DNA of 64,000 nt from an uncultured Eubacteriales bacterium (GTDB taxonomy: Bacteria > Bacillota > Clostridia > Christensenellales > UBA1242): positions 115-64,114 of the forward strand of contig CARJLX010000001.1 in assembly GCA_949001935.1 (NCBI GenBank). Direction: 5' to 3'. A program made the position numbers and the translations under genes. Of the stretch, positions 1-55,764 are shown one piece after another. The notes under the pieces are model-generated. The model had not been told where the DNA came from. It was given only the letters and a program-made list of their open reading frames with translations, and did no database searches. Position 1 is the stretch's first letter; each line of letters opens with the position of its first letter.

Positions 1-20
1 CATTTTGCACCTTTTTAATA

Positions 21-50
21 TAAAAAATCCGCCTAAACAGACGGATTTAC
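21..50 (-). terminator. rho-independent terminator after the hexapeptide-repeat gene
   Basis: Hairpin AATCCG (26-31) / CGGATT (42-47). On the minus strand it is followed by a T-run (complement of the A-run at 22-27). Confidence 0.5.
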
Positions 51-72
51 TTTAAATTTAAGACTGTTTGGC

Positions 73-765
73 TTATCGGCAAAGTTCATCATCATAAACA
101 GATAATTTTGTATCTCCATTTACTACATAATTTTCTTTACCTATACGTGCAGCTCCGTATACTTCTGCATTGTCGTAAACTTCGACATATTCCATGATTC
201 CTGCATGTCCATAAACTTTTGCATTACCATAAACTTTTGCAGCATTAAAGATTTCTGCATTTTCAAACACTTTGGCTTTACCAAAGACTTCAGCATGTCC
301 CGAAATATGTGCTTGACCTGAAATGTCAGCGCATTCATATACTTTTGCATTAGAGTCAACTCGCGCAAATTCTCGAATAGTGGCATCTCCATATACTTTG
401 GAATCTTCACTAATCTCCGCACACCCAAACACTTGTGCATGCCCATAGACCTGTGCGCTTCCAAAAATTTTCCCTTTCTCAAAAATTTGTGCGTTTCCTG
501 CAACTATCGCTTCCCCAGAAACGTGTGCGTCGTCTCTAACTTGTGCATTACCAAAAACAACTGCATCCATGCCAATCCAGCATGTGCCTTCTTGACTTAA
601 ATTGTCTTCACGCTCGATATATCCGCCTTTTGTGCCTTTTGCAACAAGAAGATAGCCTTTCTCGTCAACAATATCTTCCAAAGCTACAATACGGTGTAAA
701 ATTATTTCAGTCTTTCCTTCAATAATCTTAACATCTTCTTCATCTTGTGAAATTTGATATTTCAT
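73..765 (-). CDS. YdcK-like left-handed beta-helix (hexapeptide-repeat) protein
   Basis: About 23 consecutive hexads of the form [IV]-x-x-x-A-x (VFGNAQ VRDDAH VSGEAI VAGNAQ ...). The N-domain LHRIVALEDI..GGYIEREDNLSQEGTCWI resembles E. coli YdcK. Start moved to the ATG at 765 (MKYQISQ), which is preceded by GGAGG. Confidence 0.7.
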   Translation of the reverse strand: MKYQISQDEEDVKIIEGKTEIILHRIVALEDIVDEKGYLLVAKGTKGGYIEREDNLSQEGTCWIGMDAVVFGNAQVRDDAHVSGEAIVAGNAQIFEKGKIFGSAQVYGHAQVFGCAEISEDSKVYGDATIREFARVDSNAKVYECADISGQAHISGHAEVFGKAKVFENAEIFNAAKVYGNAKVYGHAGIMEYVEVYDNAEVYGAARIGKENYVVNGDTKLSVYDDELCR

Positions 766-803
766 TTTTTCCTCCATACAAAAATATTTTATCATATTTG
801 CTA

Positions 804-1544
804 TTATTTGTCAATAGTTTGTTGATTTTCTTCTTCAATTTGGGGATTAAGGACAATTTCTTGTTTTTGTTTCTTTTCAAGTTTAATCCATTCAAGCATT
901 CCATAGGCGTCATAGATTATTTGGAAAACATGATATATAATCATTGGAATAAAAGATAAATCTCCCTGCACCACAAGAAAGATCCAAAGGATAGGAACAA
1001 TAAAGTCGTTTATCAAAAATGCAACTTGATTCCACTTACATCTTCTGATTAAAAGATAAACAGCGGGCAGCATTGACAAAAACGAAAAAGTGTTTGTCAC
1101 AAGTTGATTTGTTTGCAGTGCTCTTAAAATAAAGAAAACTGCAACGCCAACACCAACAAAAGCGAGAGAAGAAAACAGCCATTCTTTCTTTGAGAGATTA
1201 CTTCGCACAATGACAACATTCTCTTTTTTATCTCTGTGCGCAAGCCAATGGATAACGCCATAAATATACATAGGCAACATGATGATTAAATATAAAAGTG
1301 CTTCGCCATAAAACTTTTGTGTGTAGCAGATGAAGATATAAAAACAAAAGTAAACAACACCAATAAATTGCGTTGCAATTTTTCCTTTGGCTTGTGTGAA
1401 AACGCATAACAATCCCAAAAGGGTGTTTGCGATAATAAACCATTCAGACTTAAACAAAATACCTGTGACAGTCACAGCAATTATGCCTGAAAGGATTAAA
1501 ACCAAATCAAGCCAATTATATCCTTTCCAAGTTTTTAATTTCAT
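804..1544 (-). CDS. pnuC: nicotinamide riboside transporter PnuC family
   Basis: Multi-TM protein with PnuC-like sequence (WLDLVLILSGIIAV.., ..IHWLAHRDKKE.., C-terminal YGMLEWIK). ATG at 1544 is preceded by GAGGTG and overlaps the upstream stop by 4 nt (ATGA). Confidence 0.8.
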   Translation of the reverse strand: MKLKTWKGYNWLDLVLILSGIIAVTVTGILFKSEWFIIANTLLGLLCVFTQAKGKIATQFIGVVYFCFYIFICYTQKFYGEALLYLIIMLPMYIYGVIHWLAHRDKKENVVIVRSNLSKKEWLFSSLAFVGVGVAVFFILRALQTNQLVTNTFSFLSMLPAVYLLIRRCKWNQVAFLINDFIVPILWIFLVVQGDLSFIPMIIYHVFQIIYDAYGMLEWIKLEKKQKQEIVLNPQIEEENQQTIDK

Positions 1545-2635
1545 TCGCACACCTCAACAAAGCAAGTTTCAATTTTGCCAGAAAAAGCAGAGTTGAAAAC
1601 TTCCACATAAGCACCAACATTCTTTATGACAAAAACAGTTTTGTTGTCAAGTTTACATTCTGGCAAAGAATAAATCCCAAGAACATCGAGAGAGTCTGCT
1701 GTTGGTCCTCTTAAAACAAGTTTTTGCTTGCTGTTTGCTTTTTCAAGTTTTATCATTTTTTCACCATTGTAGGCAAAAATCTCAAATTGTCTTTTGTGAA
1801 GCTGCGTATCTATTAAGCCATTATAAATCCCAAGTTCAAGTGACGCCACGACTTCATTATTAGTTCTTAAATTGTCAACAACTCTAACACATGACACATA
1901 AACATCTTCCACATCACCAACCAAATATCTTCCGGGCTCCAAAACGATATATTTTGCGCCAAAGTGTTCAAGTGCTTTTTCTATTGTTGGCATTGTGTAA
2001 AGTAAGCGCTCTTTATTTGCACCACCACCGATATTGATGAAATCTATGTTTATATTTTTGCTGAAAGACTTTGTTATGTGATTTAGCATTTTTATTAAGC
2101 AATCTTCATCATTGTGAATTTCCGCTTGAATATAAAAACTTAAACCTTTTTCTATTTCAATGCGATTTTCTTCGTTTATAATTTTTAAGAGTTTTGCTGC
2201 TGTGCTTACAACAGCGCCAAGACGAGAGTCTGTCGCACCTTTTTTGTCAAATTCTTCCTTAAAACACTCATACACATTAAGTCTTACATTGATTTTCAAC
2301 TTTGGCAATTTGTTTCTAATTGACAAATCGATAATTTGTTTTAGTGAATTTTCATCATCAATTGTATAGTAAGAAATTTTATGTTTTATTGCCCACAAAA
2401 TATCTTCTTGGGATTTGGCAACATTTGAAAACATAATCTTGTCAGCAATACTTCTTGAATAAACTTTCTTAATATGCTCAATGCTGTCAGTTTCAAATCC
2501 GCAACCAAGTCTTTTAAGTTCTTTTAAAATGATTGAGTTGTGATTTGTTTTAATGGGAAAATATACAGGACCAAATCCTGCAAACATTTTATAATTCTCT
2601 TTCAATTTTGCTGTGTTGATTTTATATGTTATCAT
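1541..2635 (-). CDS. type III PLP-dependent decarboxylase (Orn/DAP/Arg decarboxylase fold)
   Basis: Motifs FPIKTNHN (PLP-lysine region), GGGANK and EPGRYLVGD. Substrate cannot be assigned. Confidence 0.7.
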   Translation of the reverse strand: MITYKINTAKLKENYKMFAGFGPVYFPIKTNHNSIILKELKRLGCGFETDSIEHIKKVYSRSIADKIMFSNVAKSQEDILWAIKHKISYYTIDDENSLKQIIDLSIRNKLPKLKINVRLNVYECFKEEFDKKGATDSRLGAVVSTAAKLLKIINEENRIEIEKGLSFYIQAEIHNDEDCLIKMLNHITKSFSKNINIDFINIGGGANKERLLYTMPTIEKALEHFGAKYIVLEPGRYLVGDVEDVYVSCVRVVDNLRTNNEVVASLELGIYNGLIDTQLHKRQFEIFAYNGEKMIKLEKANSKQKLVLRGPTADSLDVLGIYSLPECKLDNKTVFVIKNVGAYVEVFNSAFSGKIETCFVEVCE

Positions 2636-2662
2636 GTAAATGCCTTTGTTCTAAGTTGCTAT

Positions 2663-3271
2663 TTATTCAAACACAAATCCTTCCGTGTTTTTAATGATAA
2701 ATTTGCCTTTTGAATATTCAAGTTCCGCACAAGCAACATCTTTGATGTCTAAAAGTTTTCTTTTTTCTTTCAATACTGTTTGAAAAATACTTCTTAAAAC
2801 ACCGCCATGAGTGATGATTGCAATATTGTTTAAACTTTTGCTTTCTTTAAGGATAAATTTCATCACATTTTTTGCGCGTTTATCCAATTCATCAGCGGTT
2901 TCGCCACCGGGCATACATTTTCTGTTATAATAACTTGCATTTTGATATTCTGGCTTTTCCAAGAGATAAGCAAAGAGTTCTTTTGCCAAATTCTTTTCGA
3001 GTCCTGTTAAATATCCATAGTGATTTGTTTCATGCAAATCAAAAACTTTTTCAACAGGGACATTTGTTTTCTTGTTGAGAATATCAGCAGTTTTATAGGC
3101 TCTTTTCAATGGGCTCACAAAGATTTTTTCAACATTAAGTTTTTCAAATTTTGGTCTAAATTTTTCAACTTTTTTTGCGCCATTTTCGGTTAAATCCCAA
3201 TCTGAAGCTCCGCCATAGCAGTTTATCAAATCGTCTTGCGATTCGCTGTGTCTTATCAAATAAATTTTCAT
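2663..3271 (-). CDS. histidine phosphatase (phosphoglycerate mutase-like) family protein
   Basis: N-terminal IYLIRHSES (RHG-type motif) and a later ITHGG. RBS AAGGAGA upstream. Confidence 0.75.
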   Translation of the reverse strand: MKIYLIRHSESQDDLINCYGGASDWDLTENGAKKVEKFRPKFEKLNVEKIFVSPLKRAYKTADILNKKTNVPVEKVFDLHETNHYGYLTGLEKNLAKELFAYLLEKPEYQNASYYNRKCMPGGETADELDKRAKNVMKFILKESKSLNNIAIITHGGVLRSIFQTVLKEKRKLLDIKDVACAELEYSKGKFIIKNTEGFVFE

Positions 3272-3289
3272 AGGTTTCTCCTTACGGAT

Positions 3290-3298
3290 ATTATAGCA
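3290..3298 (-). promoter_or_regulatory. extended -10 promoter (TGcTATAAT) for the phosphatase-decarboxylase-pnuC-ydcK-like operon
   Basis: The minus strand reads TGCTATAAT about 20 nt upstream of the ATG at 3271. Confidence 0.45.
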
Positions 3299-3339
3299 TA
3301 ATCTTCGCTATTTTGTATATGTTTTTTAGAAATTTATAT

Positions 3340-3369
3340 AAAAAAGAGTAAGGCGAAAAATCTTACTCT
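3340..3369 (-). terminator. rho-independent terminator of the SLOG gene
   Basis: Hairpin AGAGTAAG (3345-3352) / CTTACTCT (3362-3369), with a T-run on the minus strand. Confidence 0.5.
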
Positions 3370-3935
3370 TATGGCTTGATCAGTTCGATTTTTAGTCCTT
3401 TTTGTTTTGCTTTATTGACTGTGTATTTTGTGCCACCGGGTTTATTGTCAAACAAAGCAAACACAAGTGAAGAACAATTTAGCATATAGTCATTTCTTTC
3501 CAACATACATTTTGGGTTGTCGTCATATCTCTCATAAAGACAACGCACATCATCACATTGTTGTAAAAGATTTTTATATCTTGCAATTTGATTTTCTTTC
3601 CAAAGTCTGTATTGATCTCTGCATGGCAGTGCGGCGACAAGTTTTATTTGTGGATATTTCTCTTTTAGTTCCAAGACAATTTCTGCAAAAATCATATCAA
3701 ATCCAATTGCCATGCCAGATATGAAAACTTTGTATCCATTTTGAATTGCGTTTTCGACTTTTGCTTTTGTTCTTTTTCTCATATCAAGACATCTTATGTC
3801 TTGTTCATTAAATCCCCATGGGCATTTTTGCGGCCTATATCCAGTTGAGCAAGCAGTATATGCCGACATTTCTTCATTGATAAGTAAACACTCATCTTTA
3901 ATTTTGCCAATTGATTTTTTAAACCAAGTCATCAA
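3369..3935 (-). CDS. SLOG-superfamily protein, YpsA/DUF1273-like
   Basis: STGYRPQK.., Gly-rich loop FISGMAIGFD, and C-terminal KPGGTKYTV..KGLKI, all typical of the DUF1273/YpsA family. AAGGAG RBS. Confidence 0.7.
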   Translation of the reverse strand: MMTWFKKSIGKIKDECLLINEEMSAYTACSTGYRPQKCPWGFNEQDIRCLDMRKRTKAKVENAIQNGYKVFISGMAIGFDMIFAEIVLELKEKYPQIKLVAALPCRDQYRLWKENQIARYKNLLQQCDDVRCLYERYDDNPKCMLERNDYMLNCSSLVFALFDNKPGGTKYTVNKAKQKGLKIELIKP

Positions 3936-3946
3936 AAAACTCCTTT

Positions 3947-3968
3947 TAGTTATGTTTTTGCATAACTA
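3947..3968. promoter_or_regulatory. inverted-repeat operator candidate 1 (TAGTTATG-N6-CATAACTA)
   Basis: Seen directly in the divergent SLOG/XRE intergenic region. Confidence 0.4.
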
Positions 3969-4030
3969 TATTAGCACAAGTTTCTTCATTTTCAAAAAGA
4001 TTTTATGTTTTTACATAATTATTTATAAAA

Positions 4031-4054
4031 ATAGTTATGCTAAAATATAACTAT
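4031..4054. promoter_or_regulatory. inverted-repeat operator candidate 2 (ATAGTTAT-N8-ATAACTAT)
   Basis: Same AGTTAT/ATAACT half-sites as candidate 1, about 25 nt upstream of the first XRE gene. Confidence 0.4.
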
Positions 4055-4078
4055 CTAAAAACATAAAGGGGCGAGAAG

Positions 4079-4318
4079 ATGAGCGTTTCAAAAGCAGTGA
4101 CAGCAAGAATAAATGAGATATTGAGAGAAAAGGATTTGTCATGGTATAAAATCGAACAAATCACGGGCTTGTCAAAAGGAACGATTATATCGTTGCAGTA
4201 TTCAAGATATAAAGGTGTAAATCTAACAACTTTGGTTGTTATTATCAGAGCATTAGGCGTTTCCATTGATGAATTTTTCAAAAGTCCATTATTTAGTGAA
4301 GAAAACTTGGACTGCTAA
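4079..4318 (+). CDS. XRE-family helix-turn-helix transcriptional regulator
   Basis: 79 aa. HTH region LSWYKIEQITGLSKGTIISLQ. RBS GGGGCGAGAAG. Confidence 0.75.
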   Translation: MSVSKAVTARINEILREKDLSWYKIEQITGLSKGTIISLQYSRYKGVNLTTLVVIIRALGVSIDEFFKSPLFSEENLDC

Positions 4319-4342
4319 ACGCTTTCTCACATGGGTGGTTGT

Positions 4343-4588
4343 ATGACAATAAGCAAATGTGTTTCTCAAAGATTGCGTGAGATTTTATTTGAAAAACAGA
4401 TAACTATATATAAGTTATGTGAAATTAGCGGATTAAGCAAAGGCACAATTACATCTTTGTTGTATAATCGTTATGAAAGTGTAAATATGAAAACAGTTTT
4501 CATTTTACTTCAAACAATGTCAATCCCGGTGCTGCAATTTTTTGACAGTCCTTTATTTGCTGACTTGGATAATATCAATTTATATTAA
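4343..4588 (+). CDS. XRE-family HTH regulator, tandem paralog
   Basis: Aligns along its whole length with the preceding protein (R..EIL.EK....YK..EI(S/T)GLSKGTI.SL.Y.RY..VN..T......). Start placed at MTISK. Confidence 0.7.
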   Translation: MTISKCVSQRLREILFEKQITIYKLCEISGLSKGTITSLLYNRYESVNMKTVFILLQTMSIPVLQFFDSPLFADLDNINLY

Positions 4589-4601
4589 AAATAGATAAAA
4601 A

Positions 4602-4623
4602 ATACTCCCTGTTAGGGGAGTAT
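4602..4623. terminator. bidirectional terminator between convergent genes
   Basis: ATACTCCC / GGGAGTAT stem with a 6-nt loop, A-run before and T-rich tract after. Confidence 0.6.
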
Positions 4624-4635
4624 TTGTATTTTGCG

Positions 4636-6057
4636 TTATTTTAAGATTTTCCAATAGCCATTTTTGTCGGCGCCACATCTTTCAATAAAACCGTTGTCTT
4701 TCAAAGTTTTTATTGCTCTTTTGACTGTTCTGTCAGATTTTCCAGATAGCTTCTTTAAATCTTCAGCAGTATATGAATTTTTCTTTTTTATCCACTCATA
4801 TACAGTTTTTACAGTGCCATTTAGTGGGACATTTACAGTGCCATTTAGTGGGACATTGTCAATAATATGTTCCACAGGGTCAATCCCATCAAGTGGGATA
4901 ACAAGTTGCTTGTTATAATTTGAATTATATATAACAACCCTAAAAAATCCGCCTGAACAATAAAATTCAACATGATTGTCCTTATCACCAAAAAGACGAT
5001 TTGTTCTATCGGTTATCTTTTTGAGTCCAGTTCCACGTCTTTCCATGAAATTCATTCTGGCAAACAAGTCGGCTAAAATAGGGTTTCGTCTTGCAGATGT
5101 GACAACATCTGTCATTTGCTGTTTGATCTCTTGCCCAGAGTACATTCCGCCGGGTGAAGTGATTTCAAGTCTATCATCAAACAAATTTATACTTACTTCT
5201 GATCCAAGTTGAGTATATTCTCGGTGTATAATAGCATTGACAATAGCTTCCCTTATAGCTTCCTCATCATAGTCTGGGTTTACTATACGATCTAAGCCTT
5301 CAATGTGCCAATTTTTCTTTGTGTTGTTTCTAACAAAGTCCAAAGCAGAAAACAGTTGTCCGATAACTCCGCCAGAGATTTCTTTGTCATCAATAGCTTT
5401 GTTTATAGATGTTTTATCTAATCCAATCCAATGAGTGCAGAAAATTCTATTCTGTCTATAAATGTTTTGGTCTGCGAGTAAAACACCTGCATTTGTCAAA
5501 TAACCTTCATTAGTTGCAAGCCCGAAAGAAATATAGTCTTGTTCAGTTATTTTAGTATAAGTCTTTTCTAAAAAGGTTGCTTCAAATAAAGTAAATGAGT
5601 AATCCGATTTTCTATATCTTGTGACTAAGCTGTCATAAGTTTGGTTTGTTCCTTTCAAAATCAGTTCGTTAAGAATATGAACGGGTGCAACAACGGACTC
5701 GTTGCCACTTCTTATATAGGCTTCTCGAATTCCGTCACTTTCATAATAATATGGGGTTGATGTGCCGGGATAAACTTTTACTATCACAACAACTTTTCCA
5801 TTTTCATTTTGTGGGATCAATTCGTATTTCGGTGTAGGTTTTATCTTTGAGTTGATTTTCTCTGAAATAAAGTCACATACTTCTTGTGGGTTTTCAATCC
5901 CTACAATCTTGCGATCATTGTCAACTCCAAAGAATAGAGATCCGCCCATATTATTGGCAAAGGCCGAAACAGATTTAAGCCAACTTTTTGGTCTTTGTCT
6001 TTCAACTTGCACTTTAAAATCATAGTCAGAACATTCTGCAATAAGTTTTGATAACAT
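4636..6057 (-). CDS. AlbA_2 (Schlafen-like) DNA-binding domain + HATPase_c_4-like ATPase + C-terminal wHTH regulator
   Basis: N-terminal ECSDYDFK..WLKSVSAFANN.GG.LFFGV, middle REAIVNAIIHREY...LEITSPGG, C-terminal winged-helix-like tail. AGGAGA RBS. Confidence 0.7.
   Translation of the reverse strand: MLSKLIAECSDYDFKVQVERQRPKSWLKSVSAFANNMGGSLFFGVDNDRKIVGIENPQEVCDFISEKINSKIKPTPKYELIPQNENGKVVVIVKVYPGTSTPYYYESDGIREAYIRSGNESVVAPVHILNELILKGTNQTYDSLVTRYRKSDYSFTLFEATFLEKTYTKITEQDYISFGLATNEGYLTNAGVLLADQNIYRQNRIFCTHWIGLDKTSINKAIDDKEISGGVIGQLFSALDFVRNNTKKNWHIEGLDRIVNPDYDEEAIREAIVNAIIHREYTQLGSEVSINLFDDRLEITSPGGMYSGQEIKQQMTDVVTSARRNPILADLFARMNFMERRGTGLKKITDRTNRLFGDKDNHVEFYCSGGFFRVVIYNSNYNKQLVIPLDGIDPVEHIIDNVPLNGTVNVPLNGTVKTVYEWIKKKNSYTAEDLKKLSGKSDRTVKRAIKTLKDNGFIERCGADKNGYWKILK
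4811..4858. repeat. tandem 24-bp duplication inside the AlbA_2 gene
   Basis: ACAGTGCCATTTAGTGGGACATT(T/G) occurs twice and encodes NVPLNGTV NVPLNGTV in frame. Confidence 0.9.
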
Positions 6058-6138
6058 ATAATTCTCCTAAATAATAATTTGAGTATATCATATTTAGGGC
6101 AAAAATTCAAATCTTAATGTCAAAAATTAAAAACTATT

Positions 6139-7335
6139 TTATAATTCGCTGATTGCAAGAATGTTGAGTTCTGGATATTGTTCTTTGTATTGTTCAACCA
6201 AATTGTCGGGAACATAAACTTCTGCGTTGAGCAAATAGTCCTTATCATAGCCAATATCCAAAACAATGTTTGGTCTATAAATTATTCTTTGTAAACTATC
6301 ACAGCCTGCGACACATGGCAAATAATAATCAACTCCTTCTGGCACATCAATTTCTTTCAATGTCTCGCAAACATGAAAGGCTGCAAATTCAATTCTTGTC
6401 ACAGTGTCGGGTATTGTTATTTGTTCCAAACTTACACAGCCCCAAAATGCACTATCACAGATTGCAGTTATTTTTCCTTTAAATTCAATACTCTTTAAAT
6501 TTGAACACGCATTACATAGTCCATTTGGCACTTGTGTGATTTGTGTTGGCAAAACAAGACTTTCCAAAGCGCTATTAGAGAAACATGAATATCCTATTGA
6601 TATTAAACTTTCTGGCAATTCGATCTCTTTTATATTTGAGCTTGAAAAAGCACAAGTTCCTATATGAGTTATACCTTCTGGCACAATCACTTTTTCAACT
6701 GATGTTTCTGCAAAAGCATTTTCAGCAATAGATGTCACTTGGAAATCGTTGCCTTCAACAAAGATCTCTTTTTTTTCTTTATATATAATAGGAAAGGCAT
6801 CATCAATATTTTCAAGTTCTGGCAAAATGTTTGAAGAATTATAAATAACATAATCCTCGCCATTTGCAAGTTGAATAGTTATCTCTTTGCCTTTCCATTC
6901 AAATTGTTGATTGTGATACCATTCATAGAAATCCCAAATATTCTCAAAAGTTTTTTCTTCTGTTTTATATCCACCAATTGAATATGATGTTGGGATTGTT
7001 ATTTCATTGTTTGTTGCAGTGCAACCAGTGAAAGCTCCGTCTTTAAATGAAAAAGGAATGATTGTTCCAACGATTTCATCTTCTTTTGGTTTCTCATCTT
7101 CTTTCGGTGGTTTTGGGGGGATGACATCAGCAGGCTTCTTATTTTCTTCGTCATCTTTGTCTGTTGGGTTGTCATCTGGCAATTCCGGTGGCGTTTCTGG
7201 ATCCACCGGGATTTCAATGGCTGGTCCATTGTTGTCATTTTGTGGCGCTGTTTTTGGAATACAGCATAAAAGAATAGTAGTGCCAACAATAAGCACAAAA
7301 GCTATGGCACCAATAATAATCCAAAATTTTTTCAT
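6139..7335 (-). CDS. BspA-type leucine-rich-repeat surface protein with N-terminal membrane anchor
   Basis: TM helix FWIIIGAIAFVLIVGTTILLCCI, Pro/Glu/Asp/Lys-rich linker, then repeats of the ..I.IP..VT.I...AF..C..L..I.. type. Confidence 0.7.
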   Translation of the reverse strand: MKKFWIIIGAIAFVLIVGTTILLCCIPKTAPQNDNNGPAIEIPVDPETPPELPDDNPTDKDDEENKKPADVIPPKPPKEDEKPKEDEIVGTIIPFSFKDGAFTGCTATNNEITIPTSYSIGGYKTEEKTFENIWDFYEWYHNQQFEWKGKEITIQLANGEDYVIYNSSNILPELENIDDAFPIIYKEKKEIFVEGNDFQVTSIAENAFAETSVEKVIVPEGITHIGTCAFSSSNIKEIELPESLISIGYSCFSNSALESLVLPTQITQVPNGLCNACSNLKSIEFKGKITAICDSAFWGCVSLEQITIPDTVTRIEFAAFHVCETLKEIDVPEGVDYYLPCVAGCDSLQRIIYRPNIVLDIGYDKDYLLNAEVYVPDNLVEQYKEQYPELNILAISEL

Positions 7336-7390
7336 TGTTATACTTCCTTATTTAAAATTTAAAAAATAAAAAATAAGCAAAATTGCTTAC

Positions 7391-7643
7391 TTGTGACGAA
7401 TTTTTGCAAGAAAAATGCAAAATTTTTGCAAAAGTGCCGTTTTGTGCTTTTGTTTAACGGCAAAATGTTGTATAATGTTTTTTGTTAAAGTGAAATCGCT
7501 AAACTGCCGATAAATAGGCACATATAGGCACTTTAATAAACGATATAAAATGGTAAAATCTGACGGAAAACACGAACAGCCAGCAATGAGTTTCGACAAC
7601 TTCGGAACTTAGTGTGAGGGTTCGAGTCCTTCTGGGAGCACCA
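7391..7643 (+). repeat. 253-bp repeat unit A (direct repeat of 11072-11324)
   Basis: Ungapped alignment with unit B. The first 58 nt are identical. By hand count there are about 51 mismatches in 253 nt, concentrated in the middle. Confidence 0.9.
7483..7643 (+). ncRNA. candidate small RNA A ending in a tRNA-like T-arm/acceptor/ACCA minihelix
   Basis: TATAAT at 7471-7476. The 3' end reads GAGGG-TTCGAGT-CCTTC-TGGGAGC-A-CCA (7616-7643). No D arm or anticodon arm was found. Confidence 0.35.
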
Positions 7644-7689
7644 GTAATTTCTATTTTGTGACGAACTTGTTGCAAATTTACATAAAATT

Positions 7690-8919
7690 TTATATTTTAA
7701 GAGAGGATTCATTTGTTTCTAATCCTTCTTCTTTTTCTTTTATTTCGTTATTATAGATTTTTTCAGCTTTAATAAAAAGAGATGAAGATATTATTTGAAT
7801 TAACGATAAAGTCAGTATGATTATACTTAATGAAATTTCATTTGGTATAACATTGTAAATGAAAAAAGCGATTAAATAAGCAAAAGTTTTAAAAATATGG
7901 TCATAATAATTAAAGGTTAGGTGGTGTTCTTTTTTATATTGTGAAAATTCTGTATTTTCTATTGCGGTATAAATATCTTGAGCTGTGCGGTGGCTGATGA
8001 TCTTTCGACAGCATTTTAACACAAAATAATATATAAAGAATCCCACAATTGAAGTCCATGCTGTAAGCATAATTGAAACTGCGACAATTAATATAGTACT
8101 TATCATAAGCAACGGATCTTTGAATTTGTATAGTTTAAGGTAAATTATGAGAACGATTCCACTTGCAACGACAGCTAAAGCAGAATATAAACCCACAGAA
8201 AAATTTGTACCAACTCGCATAAATAATAAAATTGGTAAAAGTAAATCAACAACACTATTTTGAGAAAACTTATAAAGTCCAAGTGCAAGATAAGTCATTC
8301 TTACACGTTTGATTTTATGTGTACCTTTAATAAAGTCTCTAATTTTGATTTGTGGTGCTTCAACCCAACCTTTTTTGACCCCAAAAGAAAGCAAAAAACA
8401 AATAAAAGCAATTACAAGAATAACCGCAAATAATATGTAGTATGAAACATAATCTATTATATAACCTGAGATAAATGGGCTTAGGACACTTGCAAAGAGT
8501 GATAAAAATTGAGATACCCCTAAGAAAGAAACCATTGTTTTCTTAGTATTATAATTCATTGTTGCAATTTCATGCGGTACATAATAGCAACCCCTTGCAA
8601 AGGCATATATAGCTTGCACAATAAAAACCATATATAGTCGAGAGGAGTTGATTGTGAAAACTAAACTGATTGAAACTAATGACATTACAAAACTTAGGCG
8701 ATAAACAATGTTAAAATTCTTTTTATTTAAAAATTTTATGAACAAGAATTCTAAAAACATATAAAAAATACAATCAAATAGGTTGTACCCCAAAACAAAA
8801 TTGAGGTTTTGAGAAATGCCATAAATATAAATTGAAAAAAATATATCAAAAAAAACAAATATCATTTGCATAAGCATATTGATTAGTTGTAAACAGGTTT
8901 TATCTTTTGGAAATTTCAT
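7690..8919 (-). CDS. MFS-like multi-pass membrane transporter
   Basis: 409 aa and about 12 hydrophobic segments in two halves separated by a basic loop (KIKRVRMTY). AGGAGA RBS. Confidence 0.55.
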   Translation of the reverse strand: MKFPKDKTCLQLINMLMQMIFVFFDIFFSIYIYGISQNLNFVLGYNLFDCIFYMFLEFLFIKFLNKKNFNIVYRLSFVMSLVSISLVFTINSSRLYMVFIVQAIYAFARGCYYVPHEIATMNYNTKKTMVSFLGVSQFLSLFASVLSPFISGYIIDYVSYYILFAVILVIAFICFLLSFGVKKGWVEAPQIKIRDFIKGTHKIKRVRMTYLALGLYKFSQNSVVDLLLPILLFMRVGTNFSVGLYSALAVVASGIVLIIYLKLYKFKDPLLMISTILIVAVSIMLTAWTSIVGFFIYYFVLKCCRKIISHRTAQDIYTAIENTEFSQYKKEHHLTFNYYDHIFKTFAYLIAFFIYNVIPNEISLSIIILTLSLIQIISSSLFIKAEKIYNNEIKEKEEGLETNESSLKI

Positions 8920-9065
8920 TTTTTCTCCTACCTATTAATAATAATTCAAAGGCAATTATAAGTCAAGTTTTATGTCTTGTAAAAGACAAATTTTAATATT
9001 AGGTTAGTAAATTGTTATGTTTTGTTGTAAAAATATGTTATAATAATTTTGTTTTGGAGGTACAT

Positions 9066-9815
9066 GTGAATAAAAAAGGTTTTAAACTTATATTTAATGA
9101 AAATTTTAAAAATTTAGACAATTGGAATTTTGAAGAGGGATTTGTTAGAAATCATGAGTTTCAGTATTATACAAAAAACAATCATGTTTTAAATAACGGA
9201 ATAACAATGATTTGTAAAAAAGAAAAGGTTGTTAATAAAAATTATAAAAAAGATTCAAATGATTGGCGTTGTGAAGATAAATTTGCAAATTACACATCTT
9301 GTTCAATTAATACAAAGGATAAGTTTTCATTTTTATACGGACATATGGAAGTTAAAGCTAAAATACCATGTGAAAAAGGGGCTTGGCCTGCCATCTGGAT
9401 GCTTGGCGCAGTTGAAGAATATCCATATTGCGATGAAATCGATGTTATGGAAAAATATGAAATAGATGGGGAGCCGTCCATTTTAGCAAATTTTATGTGC
9501 AGCTTTGATGGCTCGTATTTATGGAGTACAAAATATAAATCTTTAGAATTGTTTCAATCTATTGATAAAGATTGGGCAAACAAATTTCATATATGGTCTG
9601 TGGATTGGACAAAGGATTATATGAATATTTATATAGACGACATTTTAATAAATTCGATAGACAGCAAAAATATAGCAGGTAATAAATTTAAAAAGCCACT
9701 TTATATTTTACTGAATTTGGCTATAGGTCAAAAGGGGACCAAACCAAATGATGAAGATTTACCACTTAAATATATCATTGAATATGTTAAAGTTTGGCAA
9801 AAAGGAGACAAGTAA
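9066..9815 (+). CDS. glycoside hydrolase family 16 (beta-glucanase/laminarinase-like), no signal peptide
   Basis: GAWPAIWMLG followed by the catalytic EIDVME (ExDxxE) motif. GTG start after GGAGG. The N-terminus VNKKGFKLIFNENF is not hydrophobic. Confidence 0.8.
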   Translation: MNKKGFKLIFNENFKNLDNWNFEEGFVRNHEFQYYTKNNHVLNNGITMICKKEKVVNKNYKKDSNDWRCEDKFANYTSCSINTKDKFSFLYGHMEVKAKIPCEKGAWPAIWMLGAVEEYPYCDEIDVMEKYEIDGEPSILANFMCSFDGSYLWSTKYKSLELFQSIDKDWANKFHIWSVDWTKDYMNIYIDDILINSIDSKNIAGNKFKKPLYILLNLAIGQKGTKPNDEDLPLKYIIEYVKVWQKGDK

Positions 9816-9816
9816 T

Positions 9817-11064
9817 ATGCAGAAAAAAATTTTCCCATTAGGGTTTTGGAACTACTCCTCAGCAGGAGATTATGATTTAGATGAGTGTAAAGTTTGGAAA
9901 GAACTTGGTATAACAGTTACAATGAGCCATGAGTTTTATGCGGATAAAGATAGTAAACAAGAATTTTTAGCATTTTTGGATGAATGCCATAAGCAGGGTT
10001 TAAAAATTATAGTTTGTGATAGCAGAACTTCTTGGCGAGAACATAAAAATACTAAGCTTGACGAATATGAAAAAGATGTAAAGTCCGCTGTTGCAGATTT
10101 TGGAAATCATCCGGCTGTTTTTGGATTTAGCGTTGGCGATGAGCCCGGGGATGATGATTTTGAAGTTGCAATAAAAGGGTGCCAATTCTGTTTTAAATAT
10201 GCACCTAAACTACAACCATTTGTGAATTTTTTCCAATATAATCCTAATACCGAGCGTAAACATCTTAACAGTAAAGATTTTAAAAAATGGATGTCTAGCT
10301 TTATTAAACTATCTAAATTAAAAATTATTTGCTATGATGAATATAGGCAAATGGATGGGACAGAAGAAGGATTAAACGAATATTTTGAAAACTTAAAAAT
10401 TTTCCAAGAATTTTCCGTAAGAAACAAATGTGATTGGTGGGTAACTCCATCCGCAGTAGGCCATTGGGATAGGCGAATTCCTTCTGCCACAGATTTGCAG
10501 TGGCAATTTAATACAGCCGTTGCCGCAGGAGCAAAGGGTATTATATGGTTCTTTTTATATCAACGAGAACCCCATGTAAATTTCGAAGGAGCTCCTATTG
10601 ATGAATATGGTCACAAAAGAGAAAATTTTTATGAACTTGCAAGATTGCAAAAGAATTTTTTAAATATGTATGGGAATCTATTTGCAAATCTCAAACTAAT
10701 TAAATATTGCCATGCAAAAGAAAAATATTATGGCTATGGCGGAGTAGAAAAATTTGTTGCAGGAGAAGATAAGTTCGTGATAGATATTAAAAGCAAATAT
10801 TCCACGCCAATAAGTTATTCGGTTTTTAAAGACAACAATGATAATATTTATTTAGTATTTGTAAACTTAAGTCAAACAAAAAGTGATAACTTTACATTAA
10901 GTTTTAATAGTAGCATAAACAAAGTGGAACAATTAATGTTTAATAATTGTTTGAAAGATATTCAGTTTAGTCATCAAGATAATAATTTTATCAAGAAATT
11001 AAATATCGTGTATAGCACATGGATGTCTCCAGGACAAATGAATGTATATAAAATAACAAAATAA
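9817..11064 (+). CDS. putative clan GH-A (TIM-barrel) glycoside hydrolase, family unassigned
   Basis: GFSVGDEPG (acid/base-type motif), GAKGIIWFF, no signal peptide. AAGGAGA RBS before MQKKIFPLGFWNY. Confidence 0.4.
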   Translation: MQKKIFPLGFWNYSSAGDYDLDECKVWKELGITVTMSHEFYADKDSKQEFLAFLDECHKQGLKIIVCDSRTSWREHKNTKLDEYEKDVKSAVADFGNHPAVFGFSVGDEPGDDDFEVAIKGCQFCFKYAPKLQPFVNFFQYNPNTERKHLNSKDFKKWMSSFIKLSKLKIICYDEYRQMDGTEEGLNEYFENLKIFQEFSVRNKCDWWVTPSAVGHWDRRIPSATDLQWQFNTAVAAGAKGIIWFFLYQREPHVNFEGAPIDEYGHKRENFYELARLQKNFLNMYGNLFANLKLIKYCHAKEKYYGYGGVEKFVAGEDKFVIDIKSKYSTPISYSVFKDNNDNIYLVFVNLSQTKSDNFTLSFNSSINKVEQLMFNNCLKDIQFSHQDNNFIKKLNIVYSTWMSPGQMNVYKITK

Positions 11065-11071
11065 AAAATAT

Positions 11072-11324
11072 TTGTGACGAATTTTTGCAAGAAAAATGCA
11101 AAATTTTTGCAAAAGTGCCGTTTTGTGCTATGTTTTCTTGGCAAAATGTTGTATAATACTTTTTGTTAAAGTGAAATTGCTAAACATTCGATAAATAAAG
11201 GGATTTAGGCACTTTACGATACGATAAAATATGGTGCAAAACGGCATGAAAAACGAACTCCCGATATTGTATTTATACAACTTCGGAACGATTATCGAGG
11301 GTTCGAGTCCTTCTGGGTGCACCA
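11072..11324 (+). repeat. 253-bp repeat unit B
   Basis: See unit A. Same length and same ends. Confidence 0.9.
11164..11324 (+). ncRNA. candidate small RNA B with tRNA-like 3' minihelix
   Basis: TATAAT at 11152-11157. The 3' end reads GAGGG-TTCGAGT-CCTTC-TGGGTGC-A-CCA (11297-11324). Confidence 0.35.
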
Positions 11325-54514: not shown

Positions 54515-55708
54515 ATGGAATTATTAGCACCTGCGGGTAATATGGAAAAACTTATCACAGCCGTTCATTTTGGAGCAGACGCTGTGTATTTCTCTGGCAA
54601 AAGATATGGTCTTCGTGCCTTTGCTGGCAATTTTGACGATAACGAAATTGTTGAGGCTATGAAATATCTACATGAACGCGGAAAGAAAGGGTATATCACA
54701 CTCAATATTGTGGCAAAAGACGAAGATTTTGCTGGTTTGGATGAATATCTTGATTTACTTCAAAAAGCAGGCGTGGATGCAATTATTGTTAGTGATGTTG
54801 GATTAATACATTATATTCATAAAAAAGCACCAAGTTTAGATATTCATATTTCAACTCAAGCTAATGTGACTAACAGCGAGGCGATTAAATTTTACGCCGA
54901 AATGGGAGCAAAGCGTATTGTTCTTGCCAGAGAAATGAGTTTAGGTGAAATCAAAAAAATGCATGATGAAGTAGGTGACAGGATTGAACTTGAAGCCTTC
55001 GTTCATGGCGCAATGTGCATTTCTTATTCTGGCAGATGTTTGCTTTCAAACTATCTGACAGGAAGAGAATCTAATCGTGGAGCGTGTGTTCAAGCGTGCA
55101 GGTGGAAGTATTATATAAGAGAAGTTAATCGTAAAGACGAGTATGAAATGCAAGAAGATGAACGCGGAACATACATTATGAACTCCAAAGATATGAATAT
55201 GATCCAGCATTTAAAAGAAATGAAAGATGCAGGCATATGTAGTTTGAAGATTGAAGGGCGTATGAAGTCGGCTTACTATGTTGGCACGGTTGTCAATGCA
55301 TATAGAATGGCTTTGAATAACAATTTGACGGCAAGTGAGGAACTTGTCAGCGAGTTAGAAAAAACAAGTCACCGTCAATATACAACAGGATTTTATCTTG
55401 GTGCAAATGATAAGGAATATCTTGAAGACAGTATGCCAGTTCAAAGCCATGAATTTGTTGCTGTTGTAGTTGATAAAAGTGATGACGGCGTGATTTTTGA
55501 ACAACGCAATCGTTTTGTTAAAGGTGAAACTCTTGAAATTTTGAGTGTAGACAAAAATCTTTTAAATAAACCTTTTTTTGTAGATGAAATGACTGACGAA
55601 AAGGGTGAGTCAATTGAAGATGTTAAAGGCGTTCAACAACGAGTGTTTATCAAAACAACTTTACCACTTCAAGTTGGAGATATTTTGAGAAGAAGGTGCG
55701 AGAAATAG
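54515..55708 (+). CDS. peptidase U32 family protein (family includes RNA hydroxylation factors TrhP/RlhA)
   Basis: MELLAPAGN..AVHFGADAVYFSGKRYGLRAF, and a Cys cluster GAMCISYSGRCLLSNY. Confidence 0.85.
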   Translation: MELLAPAGNMEKLITAVHFGADAVYFSGKRYGLRAFAGNFDDNEIVEAMKYLHERGKKGYITLNIVAKDEDFAGLDEYLDLLQKAGVDAIIVSDVGLIHYIHKKAPSLDIHISTQANVTNSEAIKFYAEMGAKRIVLAREMSLGEIKKMHDEVGDRIELEAFVHGAMCISYSGRCLLSNYLTGRESNRGACVQACRWKYYIREVNRKDEYEMQEDERGTYIMNSKDMNMIQHLKEMKDAGICSLKIEGRMKSAYYVGTVVNAYRMALNNNLTASEELVSELEKTSHRQYTTGFYLGANDKEYLEDSMPVQSHEFVAVVVDKSDDGVIFEQRNRFVKGETLEILSVDKNLLNKPFFVDEMTDEKGESIEDVKGVQQRVFIKTTLPLQVGDILRRRCEK

Positions 55709-55764
55709 GGGATTGACTATTAGTGATATTTTTGATACAATAATTCCTAGATTGGAGGGGAAAT

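Follow-up and report, generated by a model that had tools for sequence, protein, structure and literature searches.

Two 253-nt direct repeats in a small-genome gut Clostridia bacterium as probable right junctions of nested integrative elements in a tRNA-Arg gene

The sites at which mobile elements integrate within tRNA genes were reportedly sorted into sublocation classes by Williams in 2002. In the classical tRNA islands of the Islander concept, the island brings along the tRNA's 3' portion, the target gene is thereby rebuilt upon integration, and only 3' fragments are displaced (PMC4383910). In the tRNA-dependent lysogeny of the actinobacteriophage Fionnbharth and the Cluster L actinobacteriophages (Guerrero-Bustamante & Hatfull 2024; PMC10865867), the core is short (about 10 bp), the tRNA is not reconstructed, and the phage brings a tRNA of matching isotype; the same study mentions the Lj965 prophage of Lactobacillus johnsonii and considers that this behaviour may exist outside the Actinobacteria. 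[quoted passage not shown] Here we describe a locus in an uncultured Eubacteriales bacterium of the Christensenellales (GCA_949001935.1; G000 below; 1.04 Mb in 13 contigs, 32% GC, 98% complete), where two 253-nucleotide (nt) direct repeats, units A and B, bracket a cassette of three genes. The window analysed is the whole 64,000-nt stretch C1:115-64114 of contig CARJLX010000001.1 (C1); positions given without a contig name are those of the window.

We consider, with a probability of about 0.88, that the units are the right junctions (attR-type attachment sites) of two nested tyrosine-integrase elements in the anticodon loop of tRNA-Arg(UCG). As judged from sequence, unit A would close an inner ICE-related element, E3, and unit B an outer decayed element, E2, whose body is the cassette of a major facilitator superfamily (MFS) transporter, a GH16 glycoside hydrolase and a glycoside hydrolase (GH)-like protein. 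The locus displays a split target gene, cognate tRNA halves, a 7-bp core, an adjacent integrase, an element-borne tRNA, an empty site in a relative, recurrence in other genomes, and nesting. Of the described mechanisms, the tRNA-dependent lysogeny of actinobacteriophages is the closest: in both cases a tyrosine integrase lies at a tRNA gene, the core is short (7 bp here, about 10 bp there), and here, too, it is too short to rebuild the tRNA, while the element carries an intact tRNA-Arg(tcg).

The two units (7391-7643 and 11072-11324) are each 253 nt long and align without gaps, with 51 mismatches (79.8% identity), where random pairs of 253-nt segments from the window are on average 28% and at most 40% identical. 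Positions 1-58 are the same in both, 27 of the 28 nt at the opposite end agree, and the divergence is confined mainly to the centre. A preliminary description of this stretch, made from the sequence alone, had given the same coordinates, the equal length, the gapless alignment, the identical first 58 nt and the mostly central mismatches, and its hand count of about 51 mismatches (about 80% identity) agrees with the computed value; it missed the tRNA-Arg 3' half at the end of each unit. A search with the unit retrieved exactly two copies in the genome itself, and the arms of relatives likewise adjoin tRNA-Arg 3' halves. The features of the two units, their flank and their counterparts on a second contig, C6, are the following, named according to the nested-element reading:

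7391-7599, plus strand: arm of unit A (209 nt), the right-hand arm, of P-arm type, of the inner element E3
7391-7448, plus strand: identical module of 58 nt, the same in A and B, with TTGTGACGAA and then three TGCAA motifs at 11-nt spacing
7600-7606, plus strand: CTTCGGA, core of the E3 right junction; it is the anticodon loop and contains the anticodon TCG
7600-7643, plus strand: orphan 3' half of tRNA-Arg(TCG) #2, the tRNA carried by E2 and split by E3
7656-7675, plus strand: remnant of the E2 integrase-side arm module, TTGTGACGAACTTGTTGCAA, right after E2's own tRNA
11072-11280, plus strand: arm of unit B (209 nt), the right-hand arm of E2, the outer and decayed element
11281-11287, plus strand: core of the E2 right junction, CTTCGGA
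11281-11324, plus strand: orphan 3' half of the chromosomal tRNA-Arg(TCG) #1, with its cognate 5' half on C6
11541-12323, plus strand: gene of an alpha/beta-hydrolase, flanking the insertion site on the chromosomal right side
C6:3396-3359, minus strand: orphan 5' half #1, GCACCTA...ATCGT-CTTCGGA, with its core at C6:3365-3359
C6:3200-3160, minus strand: orphan 5' half #2, GCTCTCA...TAAGT-CTTCGGA, with its core at C6:3166-3160

Each unit ends in GAGGGTTCGAGTCCTTC-TGGG(A/T)GC-A-CCA. In a comparison with 201 same-family genomes, unit positions 210-253 corresponded to real tRNA-Arg(TCG) genes over the part that starts with the anticodon loop CTTCGGA and ends with CCA; both units thus contain the 3' half of a tRNA-Arg(TCG) without a 5' half. 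No tRNA or transfer-messenger RNA (tmRNA) was called in the window by ARAGORN, and no Rfam match reached the gathering score; the best match in a permissive scan was tRNA over the end of unit B (16 bits against a 29-bit cut-off), the rest being noise. The 209-nt arm that precedes the half tRNA is about 70% conserved over its full length in at least ten other genera of small-genome gut Clostridia, always directly 5' of CTTCGGA and a tRNA-Arg 3' half. Its best-conserved block across genera is the 58-nt module, and the arms of about 17 genomes have in common this type of module, a near-invariant TTGTATAAT, and ACGATA/ATGATA repeats. In the relative G211 (98% identical at the amino acid (aa) level), the unit B arm adjoins the same flank gene, and the contig ends at the arm start.

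The missing 5' halves are found on C6. A genome-wide scan for CTTCGGA yielded exactly two orphan 5' halves, two orphan 3' halves (those of units A and B) and one intact gene, tRNA #3 (C6:3111-3037, minus strand; ARAGORN), which is the sole intact tRNA-Arg(TCG) of the genome. The order on the minus strand of C6 is a promoter-like sequence, 5' half #1, about 150 nt, 5' half #2, about 65 nt, and tRNA #3. The halves match in pairs, with ACTTA and TGGGAGC of unit A pairing with TAAGT and GCTCTCA of 5' half #2, and ACGAT and TGGGTGC of unit B pairing with ATCGT and GCACCTA of 5' half #1. The two 3' halves differ at eight positions, all eight of which are compensated in the C6 5' halves. When 5' half #1 was joined in silico to unit B and 5' half #2 to unit A, ARAGORN recognized a canonical 75-nt tRNA-Arg(tcg) in each, while the swapped joins gave no tRNA call. 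Within each pair, nothing but the 7-nt loop CTTCGGA is common to the left and right junctions; seven nucleotides is also the length of the overlap region of tyrosine recombinases.

At neither 5'-half junction did ARAGORN call a tRNA, and the sequence 3' of the core is devoid of an acceptor strand. The element left end at this position resembles a decayed 3' half, with a T-arm-like GGGTTCGATTATCCC and no acceptor strand, and a complete tRNA comes next; in each element, an intact tRNA-Arg(tcg) is located 65-150 nt inward of the left end. Between tRNA #3, the element-borne copy, and its counterparts in two other genera the identity is 95%, as expected for a gene travelling with the element. The 98%-complete assembly contains a single intact tRNA-Arg(tcg) and lacks a tRNA-Arg(ccg). 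A predicted duplex energy of -29 kcal/mol (z = -2.8 versus shuffles) was obtained for a non-cognate pair, the trailer of 5' half #1 (C6:3358-3299) and the end of arm A (7540-7599); this is probably due to chance.

About 300 nt beyond tRNA #3, C6:1463-2740 encodes a 425-aa tyrosine integrase (Pfam Phage_integrase, E 7e-27; Phage_int_SAM_5, E 5e-17). Next come an integrase-like gene (225 aa) and the C-terminal part of a DNA methylase of the C5 type, which runs off the contig. The absence of an integrase noted in the preliminary description thus applies to the interval between the units and to the whole window, neither of which holds an integrase or a remnant of one, but not to the locus, whose integrase lies outside the window beside the 5' halves. 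The interval between the tRNA and the integrase stop holds three tandem 11-bp repeats, TTGTGACGAAT, followed by TTCTGCAAAAAAG. The units begin with this integrase-side decamer and three TGCAA motifs at an 11-nt phase, and an extra copy stands at 7656-7665, directly after unit A. The decamer and the TTGCAA of the stretch 7656-7675 are those of the triple repeat beside the C6 integrase, and no integrase was found after this stretch. A module of ACGAATTT (three 11-bp tandem copies) and TTTTTGCAA adjoins the integrase stop in G000 and in the relatives G012, G078, G142 and G202, and in these four relatives it occurs at both positions, in the arm and on the integrase side. G012 further has an inverted ACGATA-repeat copy (13-nt exact match) beside its integrase, where G000 has similar TATCGTAT repeats. 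We conclude that the phased repeats are most likely arm-type binding sites for the integrase and/or an excision factor, the 58-nt module being a putative arm-type binding cluster for integrase or recombination directionality factor.

The conservation of the arm could also be read in terms of transcription, although we consider it quite unlikely that each unit is a small-RNA gene, in which a TATAAT (7471-7476 and 11152-11157) would start a transcript of about 160 nt ending in a T-arm/acceptor/CCA minihelix, with A and B as paralogues. The near-invariance of TTGTATAAT across the arms of about 15 genomes fits such a gene, as do the conserved ends with a diverged middle and the fold of a 161-nt stretch of unit A, which is better than that of shuffled sequences (z = -3.5). 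However, the fold of unit B is weak against shuffles (z = -1.8), the arm TATAAT was not called as a promoter in a consensus scan, Rfam gave no match, and the supposed minihelix is a tRNA-Arg 3' half with a compensated 5' half on C6. Besides, the block with the strongest conservation is situated upstream of the supposed start and is found again next to the integrase. Any transcription of the arm would be a by-product or would serve the element tRNA in the excised form.

Comparison with relatives gives further support for nested insertions. In G201, of the same genus, the homologues of C6:3532-5628 and of the hydrolase gene are 334 nt apart with one intact tRNA-Arg(TCG) between them, and the hydrolase homologue starts 34 nt after this tRNA. 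Because G201 has an intact tRNA between the same flanks, the sequence from C6:3358 to C6:1, the assembly gap, and C1:1 to window position 11280 together represent an insertion relative to G201. The same arrangement recurs in G012, where, on a single contig, two 5' halves and an intact tRNA are followed by an integrase (63% identical) and, 12.3 kb further on, by an arm with a 3' half, which is cognate to the nearer of the two 5' halves. A survey of integrase relatives covered 62 loci, all from metagenome-assembled genomes of gut or rumen Clostridia, including Candidatus Caccovivens and Candidatus Onthoplasma. In about 38 of these loci tRNA-Arg(tcg) lies on the strand opposite to the integrase, mostly 0.3-0.5 kb past the integrase stop, and one to three orphan 5' halves lie directly upstream in at least 22; the more distant integrases adjoin tRNA-Arg(acg), Met, Ser or Lys. 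The single arm units of relatives sit at the far end of elements of 10-46 kb.

Two relatives offer additional observations on this site. In G211, loci L077 (G211:C68, 300-460) and L076 (G211:C121) show the chromosomal 5' half #1 and unit B as in G000, and 5' half #1 is followed there by another element left end and another tRNA-Arg; the sequences indicate that the element occupying the site is exchanged within what is probably a single species. In G078, locus L061 (G078:C17, 2566-2903, minus strand) contains an attP-like junction of arm, core and left end inside the chromosome, followed by a hybrid tRNA-Arg with acceptor strands 5' GCTCCCA and 3' TGGGCGC (one mismatched pair), which suggests a tandem insertion and subsequent recombination between tRNA copies. 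The left flank itself, C6:3532-5628, encodes a 698-aa homologue of TraG/VirD4-type coupling proteins, present in all 41 genus genomes searched (42-98% identity) and closest in G211 (98%). It is puzzling that a TraG/VirD4-type ATPase is kept in 1-Mb genomes, always beside an integration hot spot.

The identity of E3 is suggested by a colinear 46-kb element in G202, of the same genus, one end of which corresponds to C6:1-3198 (85% nt identity), with an integrase 91% identical to the C6 one, and the other end of which matches C1:940-2749 and C1:6826-7423. This colinearity supports the order C6 (reverse), gap, C1 (forward). The interior of the G202 element encodes a MobL relaxase, a type IV secretion system coupling protein, a VirB4-like ATPase, a primase and a complete methylase, and no phage structural genes were seen among the genes scanned; a relative with conjugation genes argues for E3 being ICE-related. 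When the G202 proteins were compared with the G000 genome by tblastn, there was no relaxase homologue, and the coupling-protein and VirB4-like matches were distant (33-42% identity) and outside the element (in the C6 host flank and on C2). The ICE genes for relaxase, coupling protein and VirB4-type ATPase are thus all present in the G202 element and none in the assembled part of E3, whose interior is a gap; either the E3 interior is unassembled or this copy of E3 is shorter than that of G202.

The cargo of the two elements in the window consists of the following parts:

1-7390, no strand assigned: right-hand part of E3, from the contig start to the E3 right junction, continuing to the left over the assembly gap onto C6
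7690-8919, minus strand: MFS transporter, E2 cargo (Pfam MFS_1, E 7e-8, slightly under the gathering score)
9012-9815, plus strand: GH16 glycoside hydrolase, E2 cargo (Pfam Glyco_hydro_16, E 3e-17; EIDVME motif intact)
9817-11064, plus strand: 415-aa protein with a clan GH-A-like fold according to a structure model, E2 cargo

According to Pfam, the right-hand part of E3 encodes a bactofilin-like protein, a nicotinamide mononucleotide (NMN) transporter, a pyridoxal phosphate (PLP) decarboxylase, a His-phosphatase, a YpsA/SLOG protein, two XRE regulators, an AlbA_2/Schlafen-HTH protein and a BspA-LRR protein. A close match of the PLP decarboxylase (87-90% identity) occurs in only two of 40 other genus genomes, and a gene for a 240-aa beta-solenoid/bactofilin-like protein (73-795) is inserted between the NMN-transporter gene and its neighbour as compared with the colinear G202 element. 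The three genes of E2 are those that the preliminary description had placed between the repeats. Its assignment of the third as a putative glycosidase is supported at the level of the fold only: the 415-aa protein has no Pfam match and only nine relatives among 5.8 billion proteins, and its AlphaFold model (pLDDT 86) combines a TIM barrel with a beta-sandwich, for which Foldseek returned GH42, GH164, GH5 and BT_1012 (E 1e-9 to 1e-12, TM about 0.6). A DEP at residues 108-110 is invariant in this family, which, on the strength of the model, may represent an undescribed glycoside hydrolase family beside GH16. Once E3 is removed in silico, E2 measures about 3.9 kb and retains both cores, one arm and the remnant of the integrase-side module; it contains no integrase or transfer genes and no integrase remnant. 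As it keeps cores and arm but no integrase or remnant, E2 fits the definition of a cis-mobilizable element (PMC5704250), and its sequence points to a cis-mobilizable remnant.

The cassette had at first been described as acquired or duplicated together with the repeats that flank it. Part of this holds, as the repeats are mobile-element sequence and the 3.4 kb between them is accessory: the G201 site is empty, and the 415-aa gene is absent from all 40 other genus genomes searched. Its counter-case, an ordinary promoter region unrelated to gene-content variation, is not what the units turned out to be. On the other hand, the repeats do not form the two ends of one cassette; both are right-end junctions, of different nested elements, with their left partners on C6. 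It is therefore very unlikely that the cassette is a self-contained unit with its own direct-repeat pair, gained, duplicated or lost by homologous recombination, even though the repeats have the same orientation and near-identical ends (58 of 58 nt and 27 of 28 nt), and relatives lack the cassette gene. Each repeat has its own 5'-half partner on another contig, the 3' half in unit A derives from a tRNA split by the inner element and does not mark the left boundary of the cassette, the relatives of the 415-aa gene elsewhere lie in unrelated contexts with no arms beside them, and other genomes carry single arm units at the far end of their elements. Deletion by homologous recombination between the repeats is a possible, candidate route.

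The cognate halves also recall the split tRNA genes of Nanoarchaeum equitans, whose halves are encoded far apart with matching stems. The likeness lies in separate 5' and 3' halves at distant places with matching stems, and two cognate pairs with intact stems and the promoter-like sequences 5' of half #1 and within the arms might speak for halves made as separate transcripts and then united in trans, by joining or annealing, to give an extra tRNA-Arg, but we give this practically no weight: an intact tRNA-Arg(tcg) and an integrase coexist with the halves, both halves hold the entire 7-nt loop and so overlap rather than abut, there are no complementary joining sequences between cognate trailers and leaders (z = -0.1 and -0.45 versus shuffles), and the presence of an integrase, the empty site and a nesting depth that varies are in keeping with insertion of DNA. 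The orphan halves are insertion scars and no gene-expression strategy. A group I intron in the anticodon loop was rejected, as inspection found the entire loop duplicated at both halves and no placement that yields both a U at the 5' splice site and a terminal G, and so was a tmRNA, a normal one being present elsewhere in the genome.

Based on these features, we propose a scheme for the integration of nested elements, with strand exchange modelled on known tyrosine integrases. The integrase would recombine the element site with the anticodon loop CTTCGGA of the tRNA gene. As the element site matches the tRNA only in the core, which is followed by the degenerate, acceptor-less relic of a 3' half, the split tRNA would not be rebuilt; instead, the element would supply a whole tRNA-Arg(UCG), located 65-150 nt inward of its left end and downstream of the promoter of the chromosomal tRNA. 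This replacement would be a fresh target for the next element, giving nested insertions. The predicted order on the left is the host promoter and 5' half #1, the E2 left end and 5' half #2, and the E3 left end, tRNA #3, the repeats and the integrase. On the right, the E3 body with the assembly gap would be followed by unit A (E3 arm and 3' half #2), the E2 body, unit B (E2 arm and 3' half #1) and the hydrolase gene. Transcription of tRNA #3 would start at the chromosomal tRNA promoter and run through the orphan 5' halves, with processing of the transcript to follow. With only one copy of tRNA-Arg(UCG) and no tRNA-Arg(CCG), the cell would depend on the copy of the element. The integrase or an excision factor would bind the phased repeats, as is the case for known tyrosine integrases, and E2 would leave only together with E3, by recombination of core #1 on C6 with the core in unit B.

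This scheme differs in several respects from the systems introduced above. Whereas tRNA-dependent lysogeny concerns temperate phages, the relatives here are conjugative or decayed elements, as seen from the relaxase, coupling protein and VirB4-like ATPase of G202; the replacement tRNA lies 65-150 nt from the core and behind the host tRNA promoter; and the same anticodon loop in the replacement is targeted again, leading to nested arrays with orphan 5' and 3' halves. As in islands, ICEs and prophages that cross over in the anticodon loop of a tRNA gene, the integrase adjoins the tRNA, a displaced tRNA fragment stands at the far end, arrays form at one tRNA, and relatives have an empty site, while in contrast to classical islands the element contains only a degenerate 3'-half relic, the orphan halves include 5' as well as 3' ones, and the tRNA is supplied whole. 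Like a CIME, E2 keeps both att junctions and an arm without integrase or transfer genes and is joined to a related integrase-bearing element, and, as in CIME accretion, the composite is predicted to be able to excise as one unit; unlike in that process, the newcomer landed in the complete tRNA gene of the resident and not in an end junction, so that the arrangement is nested and not strictly tandem.

Several points weigh against the nested-element reading. The link between C6 and C1 is deduced from the cognate halves, the G202 colinearity and the G201 empty site and is not read through, and a search for overlaps between contig ends gave no join of the two. The E3 interior, including most of the methylase gene, is unassembled, and the genome is probably a metagenome-assembled bin for which chimeric binning is conceivable. 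In the N-terminus of the integrase no arm-binding domain was found with Pfam at a relaxed threshold, and some 330-400 nt separate the putative integrase-side arm sites from the core, a large distance for a classical attP. Finally, the left and right junctions of G142 share 26 nt; only G000 narrows the crossover to 7 bp, and G012 narrows it to 9 bp.

The G000 genome contains further structures of potential interest. A second tyrosine integrase (C2:129088-130275), 42% identical to the C6 one, adjoins a tRNA-Gly/Cys/Leu cluster (C2:128090-128700) and is probably part of another integrative element; a VirB4-like gene lies at C2:80331-82976. On contig C5, ARAGORN found two copies, 2.2 kb apart, of a tRNA-Leu(taa) with a 'tRNA-Cys' of unusual anticodon ACA (C5:53350-53515 and 55550-55715), possibly a further repeat or att structure, or else an odd tRNA. 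From the CTTCGGA scan, stretches of about 100 identical nt at C7:2281 and 18870 (16.6 kb apart) point to a long direct repeat or a duplicated segment.

Overall, the nested-element anatomy accounts for the tRNA-like CCA end of the units, for their identical 58-nt module and for the seeming absence of an integrase, so that the finding as first framed is largely explained, and it averts a mis-annotation of the units as small RNAs. Integration that supplies a tRNA without reconstructing the target has experimental support only in actinobacteriophages (2024); here it would be the strategy of conjugative-type elements of uncultured 1-Mb gut Clostridia, with the twist that the element tRNA beside the core is targeted again, giving nested arrays up to three deep. 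In practice, orphan tRNA halves provide base-precise element boundaries in fragmented metagenome bins, link contigs, and mark recently acquired cargo, in this case a beta-glucan-type sugar cassette. As a tentative generalization, which we hold at slightly less than even chances, we propose a tRNA hijack, in which conjugative elements of small-genome gut Clostridia would destroy the sole CGG-decoding tRNA-Arg(UCG) of the host and supply their own behind the host promoter. In a less likely extension of this proposal, the conserved TTGTATAAT of the arm would be a state-dependent promoter, yielding the element tRNA from the excised circle and, in the integrated state, an RNA of about 160 nt that ends in a tRNA 3' half. 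The host would become dependent on the tRNA of the newest element for as long as that element is integrated, the supplied tRNA would serve as a landing pad for the stacking of further elements, and the orphan halves would remain as an ordered fossil record of the insertions.

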